Below, piece by piece: positions 32,711-37,951 of a DNA stretch of 64,000 nt. Under the pieces are notes generated by a model. The model was not told where the DNA came from, did no database searches, and was given only the letters and a program-made list of their open reading frames with translations. The DNA is from Bacteroidales bacterium. Lineage in GTDB: Bacteria > Bacteroidota > Bacteroidia > Bacteroidales > GCA-2711565. The stretch is from NCBI GenBank assembly GCA_963675215.1, contig OY775914.1, positions 11,181 to 75,180 of the forward strand, given 5' to 3'. Positions within the stretch are counted from its first letter, which is position 1; each line of letters starts with the position of its first letter. The position numbers and the translations under genes are program-made.

Positions 32711-34450
32711 ATGAAAATATTTAAATTATTATCACCTATATTTTTCGTTTTCTTATTTCTATTAGGGGAACCAACTTACGCACAAGAAAGTACCAATAAA
32801 CTTGAAGTTGGATACAGAAGAACTGGAAACATTGATGCAGAAGGGTTTTCATTGCAACGAAAAACAACCATTCAAATTGAAGGCTATGGCGGTTTATATG
32901 AAAGAATGGGCAGCGATTTAATGTTTTATGGGTGGATCCTTGATGCGAAGACCCGTGAAGTGGTATGGAGTTTACTAAAAGAAAAAAATGATGAATTTTA
33001 CAGGCATCGGGATCGGGGCAGGTTTTCTTTTAATAGCGAAATCACCCTGCCAGCCGGCGATTATGAGGTTTACTATGCGGCTGGATTAGATCAGGACAAT
33101 AAAAATGGCAGAAGTTTCGTAATTGACGATTTGGGTGATTTGATCGATTTGATATTTAATGGAAATTCCAGAGAGCGCGACTCAAGAAGATATGAAGATT
33201 TTACGATGCAGGTGATTGGCCCTGCCGGAAATTTTGAAAAAAATGATTGGCGTGAAAGTGTTGACGAATTTTCAAAAACATGCATCGCTTCTATTGTTCG
33301 GGCAGGAGATGATGAATTCATCACAGAAAATTTTACAGTTGAGGATGATATTGAACTAAACATCCGAGGAATTGGCGAGCAAAACGATGGGGAGCAATTT
33401 GATTTTGCCTGGATAGTGGATACAAAAACCTATGAGAAAATTTGGCCAACAAAAGCAAGCAGGTTTAAAACAGCCGGTGGAGGCAGAAAAAACAAATTGG
33501 TGTCGGAAAAAATTGAACTACCTAAAGGAAATTACACCCTTTATTATATTTCCGATGACAGTCATTCTTTCGACAAATGGAATGTACTTCCACCTTACGA
33601 TCCTCAATTCTGGGGGATTTCTATCTGGGCTAATGAAAAAGATCGCCACAAAGTTCAATTAAGTGAAGAATCAGATTCCTTTGTTTTGAAACTTACCAAA
33701 GCCAGAGATAATGATTATTTGAGCCAGGCTTTTAAGTTAAAAAAAGACATGAAAATTCGGGTTTACAGCATCGGCGAACGATCAGGAAATTATGACATGG
33801 CAGATTATGGCTGGATTATCAATACCGATACACACGAAAAAGTTTGGGAGTTTAAATCCAGAAATTCGGAATACGCCGGAGGTGGCGAAAAAAACAGAAT
33901 GGTAAATGAAGAAATAGAATTAGAAAAAGGAAATTATATGGCATACTACGTTACAGATGGATCACATTCATATCGTGATTGGAATGTGGCTCCACCATTA
34001 ATCCCGGACCTTTACGGGTTAAGCATTTTGGCAGGTGACGAAAGTGATTATTTCGAATTATCAGATGCACACACCATTACGGATGAAAATCTTCTTGCTG
34101 AAATTGTGAGGGTTAGGGATAACATATACGAACGAAAAAACTTTACGCTAAGCAAAGAATCGAAAATAAGGATTTATGCCATAGGCGAAGGGACTAACTG
34201 GGATATGGATGATACAGGATGGATCAAAAGTCGGGAGACCGGGAAAGTTGTTTGGGAAATGACCTACAGAAATACCGAGCCTGCCGGTGGAGCGTCAAAA
34301 AACAAACTATTTGACGGGACCATCATTTTACCTGAAGGTGAATACACGGTTTATTTCGAAACCGATGGTTCTCACTCTTACCGCGATTGGAACGCCTCAG
34401 CACCTCATGATCAAGAACATTACGGCATAAGTGTTTATTTGGTGAAATAA
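32711..34450 (+). CDS. Secreted protein made of four ~130-aa internal repeats, function unknown
   Basis: 579 aa with a signal peptide. A recurring block appears four times: GWI.D..T.E.VW...AGG..KN...E.I.L..G.Y..YY..DGSHS...WN..PP. Confidence 0.7.
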   Translation: MKIFKLLSPIFFVFLFLLGEPTYAQESTNKLEVGYRRTGNIDAEGFSLQRKTTIQIEGYGGLYERMGSDLMFYGWILDAKTREVVWSLLKEKNDEFYRHRDRGRFSFNSEITLPAGDYEVYYAAGLDQDNKNGRSFVIDDLGDLIDLIFNGNSRERDSRRYEDFTMQVIGPAGNFEKNDWRESVDEFSKTCIASIVRAGDDEFITENFTVEDDIELNIRGIGEQNDGEQFDFAWIVDTKTYEKIWPTKASRFKTAGGGRKNKLVSEKIELPKGNYTLYYISDDSHSFDKWNVLPPYDPQFWGISIWANEKDRHKVQLSEESDSFVLKLTKARDNDYLSQAFKLKKDMKIRVYSIGERSGNYDMADYGWIINTDTHEKVWEFKSRNSEYAGGGEKNRMVNEEIELEKGNYMAYYVTDGSHSYRDWNVAPPLIPDLYGLSILAGDESDYFELSDAHTITDENLLAEIVRVRDNIYERKNFTLSKESKIRIYAIGEGTNWDMDDTGWIKSRETGKVVWEMTYRNTEPAGGASKNKLFDGTIILPEGEYTVYFETDGSHSYRDWNASAPHDQEHYGISVYLVK

Positions 34451-34530
34451 AAATTAAATTTAAAACAAGATATTTAGACGAAAGTACTATTAACAACATT
34501 CGCTTTTAAAACTACACTGGTTACGAAAAT

Positions 34531-34566
34531 AAAAGGATGGCATCCTCATGAGGATGCCATCCTTTT
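34531..34566. terminator. Bidirectional intrinsic terminator
   Basis: AAAA-GGATGGCATCCTCA/TGAGGATGCCATCC-TTTT. The 28-nt palindrome at 34535-34562 is perfect and is flanked by A4 and T4. Confidence 0.8.
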
Positions 34567-34601
34567 GTACAAAAAATAATCATCACACATTACATCGCAC
34601 C

Positions 34602-34685
34602 TTTCGATACGATTTCTTTGAAATCACTCATGGTGCTGTTTGGCATTGAGTAATCTCGCTAAAAGCGAGATTGTATCGAAATGCC
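34602..34685 (+). repeat. REPIN/BIME-like structured element, copy 1
   Basis: TTTCGATAC-[GATTTCtttGAAATC]-ACTCA-16 nt-GGCATTGAGT-[AATCTCGCtaaaaGCGAGATT]-GTATCGAAATGCC. It is an inverted doublet of the unit TTCGATAC-hairpin-ACTCA. Confidence 0.55.
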
Positions 34686-34875
34686 TACTAAAACCCATTC
34701 CTTATCACGCAACCCTTTCACTGTAAATCACATCTATTAAAAAACTATGCATAACCTATATGAATAACGATTTGATTGAAAGATTTATCAAAATATGGGG
34801 TGACTATTTCGTTTTTTCGGAATAAAGTTTTGTAACTAACTTAATCTTTTTCTAAATTTATCATTATCCGATAAC

Positions 34876-35316
34876 ATGAAAAATCTATTTCTTTTAATTC
34901 TAATTTTAGCACTTATATCCTGCAAAAAGGATGATAAGTCTGGAATAGAAGGTGACATTAAGGTTCATACCATAAATAGGATGGAAGTTAGTTATGTTGA
35001 TGCCAATAGTGTTGACCTGCTCAATCAAAATAACTCCAATGCTTTTAATCATAGTGCTATAAAATTATATTATTTGGAAAATGGTGAGAAGAAATTTCAA
35101 GACATTTATTTTTCTTGTGAAGAAGCTTTGTGTTTTCTTAGGCTTTATACCATGGAAGTGCCGTTATTTCTTGAGTTAGATAATCAGGTTACGGATACCA
35201 TCACTAGCGAATTAATTATGGATGGTGCTAACCATAAAAGAAAAATTTGGTATAATGGTGAGCTAATCTCAGATGCCTTGGCCGGTAGCGAATTTCATTT
35301 TACCATCGTAAAGTAA
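34876..35316 (+). CDS. Small lipoprotein, function unknown (paralog A)
   Basis: 146 aa with lipobox LISC. It shares VSYVDAN..DLLNQ.N.NAFN, LELD..VTDTI.SE and KIWYNGELI with the next gene. Confidence 0.7.
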   Translation: MKNLFLLILILALISCKKDDKSGIEGDIKVHTINRMEVSYVDANSVDLLNQNNSNAFNHSAIKLYYLENGEKKFQDIYFSCEEALCFLRLYTMEVPLFLELDNQVTDTITSELIMDGANHKRKIWYNGELISDALAGSEFHFTIVK

Positions 35317-35350
35317 AATAATTTTCCAAAAATTTTATATTTAGAAAACT

Positions 35351-35812
35351 ATGAAAAATCTCTTTTTTTTAATTCTGTTAATACTTGTTGCATCTTGCAA
35401 GGAAAAAGTTACCACCGAAGGCGGCATCAACATTAATGTTGGTATGACGGTTAGTTTCGTTGATGCAAATGGTGAGGATCTCTTAAATCAGGACAATCCA
35501 AATGCATTTAATAAAAATGACATTTTCCTTTATCATCAGGTAAATGGTAAAAAAATATTGTATTCACCCGGACCAATGATGGATGCTCCGAATGGAACAA
35601 CCTTTAATTGTGAGCGCCCTTTATGCGCTATTGGTATTCAAAGGCTTGCCGACACAACTTATCTGGAGCTTGATGATTTCGTTACTGATACCATCTATAG
35701 TGAAACAATAAGGAATGGTGGTCATATTTACACTTCCAAAATATGGTATAATGGTGAGCTAATTTATGGGCCAGAAGATGCTGTTGAAAAATATTTTATA
35801 ATTGTTAGATAA
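35351..35812 (+). CDS. Small lipoprotein, function unknown (paralog B)
   Basis: 153 aa with lipobox VASC. It is a tandem paralog of 34876-35316. Confidence 0.7.
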   Translation: MKNLFFLILLILVASCKEKVTTEGGININVGMTVSFVDANGEDLLNQDNPNAFNKNDIFLYHQVNGKKILYSPGPMMDAPNGTTFNCERPLCAIGIQRLADTTYLELDDFVTDTIYSETIRNGGHIYTSKIWYNGELIYGPEDAVEKYFIIVR

Positions 35813-35849
35813 AAAAATTTGCTAATAATTGAATCGAATTAAAGTACCC

Positions 35850-35937
35850 TTCGATACATTCCGAAAATATCGGAATACTCAGAGTACAGATGGGGCATTG
35901 AGTGATTCCGCTTTAAGCGGGATTGTATCGAAATGCC
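35850..35937 (+). repeat. REPIN/BIME-like structured element, copy 2
   Basis: TTCGATAC-[ATTCCGaaaatatCGGAAT]-ACTCA-17 nt-GGCATTGAGT-[GATTCCGCtttaaGCGGGATT]-GTATCGAAATGCC. The flanks match copy 1. Both hairpin stems differ from copy 1 but remain paired. Confidence 0.55.
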
Positions 35938-35947
35938 CGACTAAGAA

Positions 35948-37951
35948 TTAACTCATTACCTCATCAATCAAATCATCATTCGCAAAATTAGGAAGCGTAA
36001 CCTTTAATTTAGGTTCTGCTTTCATGGCACGTTTGATTGCAAAAACAGCACCTTCATTTCGAGCCCAGCTACGGCGAGAAATTCCATTGTTTACATCCCA
36101 ATACAACATTTGATGCAAACGTTGATCTGCCGCTGGTGTTCCATCCAGCAACATTCCAAAACCACCATTCATCACTTCGCCCCAGCCCACGCCTCCACCG
36201 TTGTGGATGCTTACCCAGGTTGCTCCTCTAAAGCTATCGCCGATCACATTTTGTACTGCCATGTCGGCAGTAAATTGCGAACCATCATAAATATTCGAAG
36301 TTTCGCGGTAAGGAGAATCTGTACCCGAAACATCGTGATGATCACGTCCTAAAACTACCGATGCAGAAATTTTTCCATCTTTAATTGCCTTGTTAAAGGC
36401 CGCAGCAATTTTGGTTCTGCCTTCGCAATCGGCGTATAAAATTCTCGCCTGCGATCCTACTACCAATTTGTTTTTTTGTGCCTCTTTAATCCACTGAATA
36501 TTATCGTGCATTTGTTGACTAATCTCATCAGGAGAAGTCGCAGAAATCTCACTCAAAACATCCATGGCAATTTGATCCGTAATTTCTAAATCTTTTGGAT
36601 CACCTGAAGCACACACCCAACGGAAGGGGCCGAAACCATAATCAAAACACATGGGTCCCATGATATCCTGGACATAGGAAGGATATTTAAACTTTCCATC
36701 TGCGCTAAAAATATCGGCATCCGCCCTGCCCGATTCAAGCAAAAAGGCATTTCCGTAATCGAAAAAATACATCCCCTTTGCTGTTAAGGTATTGATGGCT
36801 TTAACATGTCTGCGCAAGGATTCCTTTACTTTTAATTTAAATTTTTCAGGATCATTTGCGATCATTTCGTTGGATGCCTCAAAACTCATCCCGACCGGAT
36901 AGTAACCTCCCGACCATGGATTATGCAATGAGGTTTGGTCAGAACCTAAATCCACAAAAATGTTTTCAGCGGCCAGACGTTCCCATAAATCAACCACATT
37001 GCCCTGATAAGCAATTGAAACTGCTTCCTTATTTTTCTTTGCTTTTTTAACACGACTTATCAAATCTGTTAAATCAATAAAAACCTCATCAACCCATCCT
37101 TGTTCAAAGCGCGTTTGAACAACCTTTGGGTTAACTTCAGCAATCAGGCCAATCGCGCCGGCAATTACCGCAGCCTTTGGCTGAGCCCCTGACATTCCTC
37201 CTAAACCTGAGGTACAGAATATCTTTCCTCCTAATCCTTCTCCATCCTTTTCAATTTTTCGGCCTGCATTTAAAACTGTGATAGTGGTTCCATGCACAAT
37301 TCCCTGAGGTCCAATATACATAAACGAACCTGCAGTCATTTGTCCGTATTGTGAAACACCCAGCGCATTAAATTTTTCCCAATGATCCTGACTCGAATAA
37401 TTTGGGATAACCATTCCATTGGTAATAACAACTCTTGGGGCAGCTTTGTGAGATGGGAATAATCCCATCGGGTGGCCGGAGTATAATGCCAAGGTTTGCT
37501 CATCAGTCATTTGAGCCAGATACTGCATTGTTAAGAGATATTGTGCCCAGTTCTGAAAAACGGCTCCATTTCCTCCATAGGTGATTAACTCGAGCGGGTG
37601 CTGCGCCACCACCGGATCTAAATTATTTTGAAGCATAAGCATAATGCCTGCCGCCTGTTTTGATTGATGGGGATATTCCTCAATATTTCGCGCATGCATT
37701 TTATAAGTCGGGCGGAAACGGTACATGTAAATCCTTCCATACTTCTTCAATTCTTCGGCAAATTCCGGAGCCAATACTTTATGATGCTTAGGCTCGAAAT
37801 AACGAAGTGCATTTCTTAAGGCTAATTTTTTCTCTTCCTTGTTTAATATGTCTTTTCTGATGGGTGCATGATTCGTGTTTGAATCATAAATTGGCATCTC
37901 AGGTAATTGAGCAGGAATTCCTTCAAGGATGGCTTTTTGGAAATCAGTCAC
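35948..37951 (-). CDS. hutU: Urocanate hydratase
   Basis: 667 aa, the long Bacteroidota form. Typical HutU blocks are present: GGMSGAQPKA and YGNAFL. Confidence 0.9.
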   Translation of the reverse strand: MTDFQKAILEGIPAQLPEMPIYDSNTNHAPIRKDILNKEEKKLALRNALRYFEPKHHKVLAPEFAEELKKYGRIYMYRFRPTYKMHARNIEEYPHQSKQAAGIMLMLQNNLDPVVAQHPLELITYGGNGAVFQNWAQYLLTMQYLAQMTDEQTLALYSGHPMGLFPSHKAAPRVVITNGMVIPNYSSQDHWEKFNALGVSQYGQMTAGSFMYIGPQGIVHGTTITVLNAGRKIEKDGEGLGGKIFCTSGLGGMSGAQPKAAVIAGAIGLIAEVNPKVVQTRFEQGWVDEVFIDLTDLISRVKKAKKNKEAVSIAYQGNVVDLWERLAAENIFVDLGSDQTSLHNPWSGGYYPVGMSFEASNEMIANDPEKFKLKVKESLRRHVKAINTLTAKGMYFFDYGNAFLLESGRADADIFSADGKFKYPSYVQDIMGPMCFDYGFGPFRWVCASGDPKDLEITDQIAMDVLSEISATSPDEISQQMHDNIQWIKEAQKNKLVVGSQARILYADCEGRTKIAAAFNKAIKDGKISASVVLGRDHHDVSGTDSPYRETSNIYDGSQFTADMAVQNVIGDSFRGATWVSIHNGGGVGWGEVMNGGFGMLLDGTPAADQRLHQMLYWDVNNGISRRSWARNEGAVFAIKRAMKAEPKLKVTLPNFANDDLIDEVMS

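Follow-up and report, generated by a model that had tools for sequence, protein, structure and literature searches.

Convergent doublets of a candidate REP/BIME-like hairpin repeat with an invariant internal core in a Bacteroidales genome

A stretch of 64,000 nucleotides (the window; bases 11181-75180 of a single 4.05-Mb contig, OY775914.1, with 35% G+C) from a Bacteroidales bacterium (GCA_963675215.1) contains two copies of a structured element on either side of a pair of small predicted lipoprotein genes. We favor, with moderate confidence, the explanation that both copies are convergent doublets of a hairpin repeat resembling repetitive extragenic palindromic (REP) sequences and bacterial interspersed mosaic elements (BIMEs), and that this repeat represents an uncatalogued family not linked to REP-associated tyrosine transposases (RAYTs). 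The same core and two-stem architecture is found in at least six phyla, and the family most likely persists and spreads as DNA at the 3′ ends of genes. A preliminary description of the window had already recognized an inverted doublet of a repeated palindromic unit, and this view was borne out.

The repeat unit and its conserved fold

The unit is ∼48 nt in length and has the form 5′-X (5-6 nt)-TTCGATAC-hairpin of free sequence-ACTCA-X′-3′, in which X′ is the complement of X. Examples of X/X′ pairs, aligned with their flanks, are GCACCC/GGGTGC, GTACCC/GGGTAC, GGCAT/ATGCC, GGACTT/AAGTCC, GACGT/ACGTC and TACAT/ATGTA. Inside the core, T-A, G-C and A-T pairs are possible together with one bulged C, which leaves a small TAC/(T)AC internal loop. 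Each copy in the window is a convergent pair consisting of one forward unit and then one inverted unit.

Copy 1 (34597-34685) and copy 2 (35844-35938) both lie on the plus strand of the window. Unit A of copy 1 is the forward unit (34597-34636) and is matched by R1, a covariance model of the unit, at genome 45775-45818 with 50.4 bits. It consists of X, GCACC(T), at 34597-34602, the core TTCGATAC at 34603-34610, the hairpin GATTTC-TTT-GAAATC at 34611-34625, the core ACTCA at 34626-34630 and X′, TGGTGC, at 34631-34636. Unit B is inverted (34642-34685, minus strand; R1 match at genome 45819-45868 (-), 55.8 bits) and reads GGCAT-TGAGT-AATCTCGC-TAAAA-GCGAGATT-GTATCGAA-ATGCC on the plus strand. In copy 2, forward unit A (35844-35887, plus strand; genome 47022-47069, 58.1 bits) is made up of X, GTACCC, the core TTCGATAC at 35850-35857, the hairpin ATTCCG-AAAATAT-CGGAAT, the core ACTCA at 35877-35881 and X′, GAGTAC. 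Inverted unit B (35893-35938, minus strand; genome 47071-47120 (-), 44.7 bits) reads GGGCAT-TGAGT-GATTCCGC-TTTAA-GCGGGATT-GTATCGAA-ATGCCC on the plus strand and, according to the open reading frame (ORF) table, ends ∼8 nt from the stop codon of hutU. The 3′ halves of the two copies are 86% identical across 44 nt.

The preliminary description had located both copies correctly, and the blocks that it named, TTCGATAC, ACTCA, GGCATTGAGT and GTATCGAAATGCC, are all present; GTATCGAAATGCC occurs exactly twice in the 64-kb window. It had also stated that the inner hairpins differ between the copies and yet remain paired. This holds for the first hairpin (GATTTC/GAAATC in copy 1 versus ATTCCG/CGGAAT in copy 2) and for the second (AATCTCGC/GCGAGATT versus GATTCCGC/GCGGGATT). 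Each element is, however, a few bases longer than the bounds given, and the second stem, X/X′, had been overlooked. The overlooked arm of 5-6 nt precedes TTCGATAC, and its partner is formed by the bases that follow ACTCA (GCACC/GGTGC in copy 1 and GTAC/GTAC in copy 2), and in the inverted units GGCAT(T) pairs with (A)ATGCC to form the outer stem.

Compensatory changes were looked for with R1 and were abundant. All hits from seven congeners were fetched, and 136 units were aligned to the model. Standard pairs accounted for 89.3% in these genus units compared with 61.3% in column shuffles, and the covariation score was 0.592 compared with 0.201 for shuffled columns and ∼0.09 when the partners were slid, values that are to be read with the caveat that the alignment was fitted to R1. 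Double-sided changes were present in 13 of 14 pairs. For 37 units from other phyla, 82.9% were paired compared with 63.0% in shuffles, and the covariation score was 0.296 compared with 0.119 shuffled and ∼0.05 with slid partners. The letters of the core are 93-100% invariant except for the last C of TTCGATAC (80%). The columns flanking the unit showed no conservation and no conserved foot tetranucleotide was found, so that conservation is internal to the unit. The most common hairpin loop is C-TTC-G, equivalent to C-GAA-G on the GTATCGAA strand (26 of 111). The d(C-GNA-G) motif is an unusually stable DNA triloop.

The element had been proposed to fold either as one long hairpin or as a linker-free four-way junction. 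The junction is indeed possible, as a cloverleaf-like alternative of about equal energy to the unit hairpin, but the conserved fold is the hairpin of the single unit, since single units exist and both stems covary. Because the X/X′ pairs covary across copies, the two halves are separate hairpin units placed head to head, and a junction arises only from the complementarity between the invariant cores of two inverted units. The helices of the junction (TTCGATAC/GTATCGAA and ACTCA/TGAGT) never vary and therefore provide no covariation evidence for it. Single units, which cannot form the junction, nevertheless keep X/X′ pairing. The folds of both copies are much more stable than those of shuffled sequences (z = -5.7 for copy 1 and -4.25 for copy 2; 0 of 200 shuffles were equally stable). 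The four-way junction is the minimum-energy fold of copy 1 and not of copy 2.

Copy number, position, inheritance and distribution

Searches with a regular expression and with the covariance model found ∼35 units at ∼20 loci in this genome, and the element is thus not confined to the window. Besides the window copies, pattern searches found five further full doublets and many half elements. Units occur as singlets, as convergent and divergent doublets (doublets in seven genomes), as alternating arrays of up to five units and as tandem arrays with periods of 198, 192 and 113 nt. Two sub-types, the A-type (GCACCC) and the B-type (GGCAT), alternate in orientation with short linkers between them. 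We also observed mini-units without the inner hairpin, CACCC-TTCGACTTCGCTCA-GGGTG, within a 198-bp tandem repeat beside the RAYT gene described below (L003 3944-3973 and 4142-4171; genome ∼2520943 and ∼2521141), and a remnant resembling a mini-unit is found in congener G011 at the place of window copy 2.

The units lie overwhelmingly at gene 3′ ends. In this genome all of the ∼20 loci are intergenic. Eleven of the 20 are in convergent intergenic DNA, which represents 12% of intergenic bases (P about 6e-6), and eight are in gaps between co-directional genes, directly after the upstream stop codon. None of the 20 is in a divergent region, compared with 23% of intergenic bases (P = 0.005). Throughout the genus, the unit lies ≤14 nt from the stop codon at 43 of 78 inferred gene ends, and at several gene ends the TGA of TGAGT is itself the stop codon. 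One single unit has an ORF with an IS3-type integrase core (genome 421207-422193) 32 nt upstream of it.

Comparison with relatives revealed both gain or loss and inheritance of units. Eight of 13 congeners have the element, and two near-complete ones lack it. At the window site, three congeners (G004, G002 and G008) contain only a bidirectional terminator between the gene for a 579-aa protein and hutU, while copy 1, the two lipoprotein genes and copy 2 are all missing; the whole block is therefore an insertion relative to these three. The copies do bracket a two-gene segment, as the preliminary description had stated. In G011 this site still has the second lipoprotein gene, with no copy 1 and with only decayed remnants at the place of copy 2. 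At 1806.8 kb, where this genome has a doublet between a stop codon and a terminator, both G004 and G011 have an empty site. This genome and G004, on the other hand, share the doublet at 984.8 kb at the same site, with flanks 76% identical and with a C-G to A-T compensatory change. At the 1606 kb site, G004 and G007 contain an unrelated small inverted-repeat element instead. Such an element of ∼90-110 nt, GTCATTCC...GGAATGAC, is seen in L097 (G004:C18:6520-6830) and in L098 and L095 (G007), where it fills the same intergenic junctions in G004 and G007 as the TTCGATAC units do here. No target-site duplication of the kind that would mark a miniature inverted-repeat transposable element (MITE) was visible at seven copies, at a divergence too great for base-level reading of the junctions. 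The nearest genome is only ∼85% identical, and consequently exact insertion junctions and duplications are not readable.

The segment bracketed in the window (34876-35812, plus strand) contains two paralogous genes for small predicted lipoproteins with lipobox-like N-termini (34876-35316 and 35351-35812), for which no Pfam family was matched. From the comparison with the congeners, the doublets appear to mark the borders of the insertion of this gene pair rather than demonstrably to cause it. Members of the lipoprotein family, ∼150 aa in length, are located at differing chromosomal places in congeners (L105 515-997 in G007; G004:C16:115222-115665). Directly 5′ of copy 1 is the bidirectional terminator hairpin of the upstream 579-aa gene (34531-34566), the only feature retained in the empty sites of relatives. 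Many near-identical hairpins of the form AAAGGGACGnCATCC...GGATGnCGTCCCTTT occur in the genus (window 34531-34566; genome 984.72 kb and 1806.9 kb; L094, L099 and L100). The 12-mer GGGACGnCATCC occurs 65 times on both strands with ≤1 mismatch, and therefore these terminators themselves look like a repeat family. The 579-aa protein (window 32711-34450) is secreted and has four divergent repeats of ∼130 aa each, with no Pfam family.

In a first look, no unit was found in 28 other families of the order. An element restricted to the genus, as 40 relatives had suggested, was overturned by a pattern scan across species. Exact matches to GCATTGAGT-N11-26-GTATCGAAATGC were sought in one genome from each of 185,579 species, and 26 loci were found compared with ∼4 expected by chance (our own estimate from 21 specified bases, 16 gap lengths and the size of the collection). 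The matches in the own genus are to metagenome-assembled genomes (MAGs) labeled ‘Bacteroidales bacterium’ and HGW-Bacteroidetes-17. The others are in six saprophytic Leptospira species, in four genera of Flavobacteriaceae (Salegentibacter, Zunongwangia, Mesonia and Aureitalea), in MAGs of Ignavibacteriales, Phycisphaerae, Fibrobacteria and a proteobacterium, and in the actinobacterium Gulosibacter macacae. R1 matched all the far loci. The number of units is 44 for the Phycisphaerae MAG and 18 for Aureitalea, and 8 of 400 sampled Bacteroidota genomes have units. In four Leptospira species the unit is at the same place behind one conserved gene. Viral contigs and plasmids gave no match to the unit, and a literature search for the core sequence returned only primers and unrelated matches. 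Rfam gave no match at gathering score in the whole window; at E values up to 10, a search of 34400-36100 gave only chance hits on the neighboring terminator.

Transcript, transposase and cassette explanations

A function at the level of the transcript is a serious rival, and it is compatible with spread as DNA, the two not being mutually exclusive. The units would then be structured RNA elements of mRNA 3′ ends, either terminator-like or stabilizing structures or docking sites for an RNA-binding protein, with doublets serving two convergent genes. We consider this possible, although on the whole unlikely as the main explanation. The strong covariation of both stems, the location of units against stop codons at gene 3′ ends and the orthologous unit behind one conserved gene in the four Leptospira species all agree with it. 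At loci in other phyla, units beside a stop codon read in the TTCGATAC sense in ∼9-10 of 10 cases. Copy 2 is the only hairpin between the convergent stop codons of the second lipoprotein gene and hutU, and this doublet probably serves also as the transcript-end structure of both genes. Within the genus, however, the orientation relative to the nearest gene end is unbiased (43 versus 35). No U-tract (T-tract in DNA) follows the units, and a terminator scan flagged the hairpin at 34531-34566 and not the units. Copy 1 lies downstream of that canonical terminator, no Rfam family matches, and tandem or alternating arrays with a pattern of gain and loss characterize repeats rather than RNA genes.

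The mispairs point to no single strand of action. The preliminary description had pointed out that two wobble pairs in copy 2 fit the plus strand only and had kept a structured plus-strand RNA as an alternative. This property is not general: among the 136 genus units, G-T (G-U) and A-C mispairs are about equally frequent (54 versus 73), without a consistent strand, and in far units 8 G-T were counted versus 26 A-C. The orientation of singlets relative to replication was 8 versus 3 by our own count, with origin and terminus taken from GC skew, and is confounded with gene direction.

Several observations weigh against a REP/BIME-like repeat that spreads as DNA. The strand evidence is contradictory and does not separate DNA from RNA: the wobbles of the X stem favor the TTCGATAC strand, and the other strand is favored by the loop type, by the first hairpin pair and by the wobbles in far phyla. 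No parent element or autonomous copy was found, nor was a transposase or a target-site duplication for the units, and no protein family recurs beside the units across phyla. There is no direct sign of recent movement at a species divergence too high for junctions to be read. In addition, the long-lived orthologous copies (in this genome and G004, and in the four Leptospira species) and the invariant core also fit an element that is purely functional and not selfish.

The preliminary description had matched the copies to REP doublets (BIMEs or REPINs), which are mobilized by RAYT/IS200-type Y1 transposases. The explanation that they are classical REPINs mobilized in trans by the RAYT of this genome is largely refuted, and we regard it as improbable. 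A RAYT gene is indeed present elsewhere in the genome (2520113-2520689; NF047646, 97 bits versus a cut-off of 80), with the HUH motif SHIH and the tyrosine motif YIHHNP, and two doublets are found 140-440 bp downstream of it. In both of these doublets unit B has GCGGAC/GTCCG as its outer stem, the same stem as in the REP that belongs to the RAYT. The G011 orthologue has a decayed unit upstream, and 7 of 16 far carriers possess RAYT-like genes. However, what flanks the RAYT on both sides, and likewise its orthologues in G011 (82% identity), G017 (66%) and G003 (64%), is a simple hairpin, GCT[AG]G-CGCGGA(C/T)-loop-TCCGYGC, and not the unit. Hairpins of the GCT[AG]G type are listed for Bacteroidetes subclass 2.6 RAYTs in Table S1 of Quentin et al. 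2018 (PMC6006769). The simple REP has ∼15 copies, clustered by the RAYT and at 2534 kb, whereas the units are dispersed. Within the genus, some congeners with units have no close RAYT, and some with the RAYT have no units. Models for Y1_Tnp (PF01797) and RAYT (NF047646) gave no hit in the six Leptospira species, in Aureitalea despite its 18 units, or in Gulosibacter, and in six far carriers no unit is present within ∼1.5 kb of the RAYT-like genes. The units also lack the conserved foot tetranucleotide. Thus the match to the REP/BIME type stands for multiple copies, intergenic position and the occurrence of singlets, doublets and alternating arrays, while mobilization by RAYT or another Y1 transposase does not, with the RAYT flanked by another REP and with carriers lacking Y1. 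A palindromic repeat cannot be attributed to a RAYT simply because the genome encodes one.

The RAYT and its simple hairpins form a REPtron (genome 2518788-2520689, L003 1789-3689; and 2534106-2534344, L005) with a single RAYT gene (191-202 aa) and ∼10 copies of the simple hairpin around it. It adjoins the GC-skew maximum at ∼2.54 Mb, which is likely the replication terminus. A second Y1 gene, encoding a 142-aa IS200-like protein (genome 926503-926931; L004 2503-2931), was considered as a partner and rejected, its flanks being unrelated to the units. This gene is solitary, has the tyrosine motif YIKTQKMHY and resembles the published subclass 1.2; the ACTTAAGTTGTGG hairpins that flank it are unrelated to either repeat family.

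It is very unlikely that the units are recombination sites that delimit mobile gene cassettes, in the manner of integron attC sites or of a composite element. Doublet pairs 0.6-4 kb apart are more common than expected by chance (three pairs in this genome versus ∼0.4 expected by our own estimate), several further close pairs occur in G011, G002 and G007, and the pair in the window brackets a segment missing from three congeners in which the empty site has no unit. The homologous lipoprotein gene in G007 is likewise bracketed by units. The accessory genes bracketed by close pairs, however, have no relation to one another, the second lipoprotein gene is retained at the same site in G011 although no intact units are there, and most units are not paired around genes. 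The sequence contains no AAC/GTT core sites (attC R''/R' RYYYAAC/GTTRRRY), no recombinase recurs nearby, and the units would likewise cluster if accessory islands were simply richer in permissive 3′ intergenic DNA.

Least probable of all is a kink-turn ribonucleoprotein site or a small self-processing RNA: the majority variant fits the kink-turn consensus at the sequence level (NC-stem-U-GA-[GU-hairpin-GU]-AUC-GA-A-NC-stem for the GTATCGAA-strand core), the 36 units with A/C at the first hairpin pair have G-U there on that strand, and small ribozymes likewise combine an invariant core with free stems, but the Gulosibacter variant has a perfectly paired TCGA/TCGA core in which the 3-nt bulge is missing, all three bulge positions are otherwise invariant, which kink-turns do not require, and the Rfam models, ribozymes included, give no match even at an E value of 10. 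An L7Ae-family protein (PF01248) was not found in 20 carrier or control genomes, and this together with the fully paired variant ruled out a kink-turn with an L7Ae-type binder as a feature of the whole family.

Comparison with known repeats and implications

The units resemble the REPs and BIMEs of enterobacteria (PU-type REPs; BIME-1 and BIME-2) in that they are short imperfect palindromes of about 40-50 nt, are extragenic and are concentrated at gene 3′ ends and between convergent genes. As in BIMEs, two unit sub-types, here those with GCACCC and GGCAT stems, alternate in doublets and arrays with short linkers. They differ in that an internal bulged core between free stems is conserved, rather than the stem or a 5′ GTAG foot, in that the core is common to several phyla whereas REP families are lineage-specific, and in their low copy number here. 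With the REPIN-RAYT system (Bertels and Rainey 2011; subclass 2.6/group 5 RAYTs, Quentin et al. 2018, PMC6006769) they share inverted hairpin doublets, a single-copy RAYT in the genome and vertical persistence at orthologous sites. Unlike REPINs, the units do not flank RAYT genes, the RAYT here having its own catalogued REP type, and many carriers are without any Y1 transposase. The unpaired foot conserved in REPs and REPINs (GT[AG]G or the class-specific GCT[AG]G) is absent from the units.

CGTC-tagged REPs (Di Nocera et al. 2013, PMC3733652) are found in several phyla including Bacteroidetes and Spirochaetes, mostly as head-to-head dimers, and no dedicated transposase is known for them. A CGTC REP is a simple hairpin whose 8-9 bp stem closes a loop of 4-5 nt, and it bears a terminal CGTC tag, which is unpaired, as well as a CCA tail (PMC3733652). 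The units are likewise palindromic, multi-phylum and arranged in head-to-head doublets, but have two stems and the internal TTCGATAC/ACTCA core and lack a CGTC tag. BOX and ERIC/IRU elements are also modular structured intergenic repeats whose mobilization is not known, and are transcribed with neighboring genes; their sequences are unrelated to the unit, and they are limited to one genus or family while the unit core spans phyla.

If the family is a REP/BIME-like repeat as we favor, the element would spread or duplicate as DNA and be tolerated only where promoters and genes are not hit. Its folded single-stranded form, whether a DNA hairpin or cruciform or a transcript, may be read by a sequence-specific partner that recognizes the bulged core, and such a partner would be widely but patchily distributed. 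Tentatively, the bulged core (TTCGATAC/ACTCA) may be the recognition or active site of an undescribed system that spans phyla. This could be a hairpin-specific enzyme for single-stranded DNA or RNA, other than Y1/RAYT, that copies the units, or a functional nucleic-acid module riding on a mobile hairpin, namely a small nucleic acid that docks a protein or processes itself.

REP-type repeats are usually lineage-specific and are explained by a co-evolving RAYT transposase. What differs here is the combination of REP/BIME-like behavior with a 13-nt internal core that is unchanged from Bacteroidota to Leptospira, Planctomycetota and Actinomycetota, with two stems maintained purely by compensatory change, and with presence in genomes without any Y1 transposase. 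The invariant core, the compensated stems and the Y1-free carriers together point to a conserved partner or to an intrinsic activity. The 48-nt hairpin, which is present in cultured Leptospira and Flavobacteriaceae, offers a concrete bait. For annotation, this repeat is uncatalogued; it marks where accessory gene insertions begin and end, and it is probably also a transcript-end structure.

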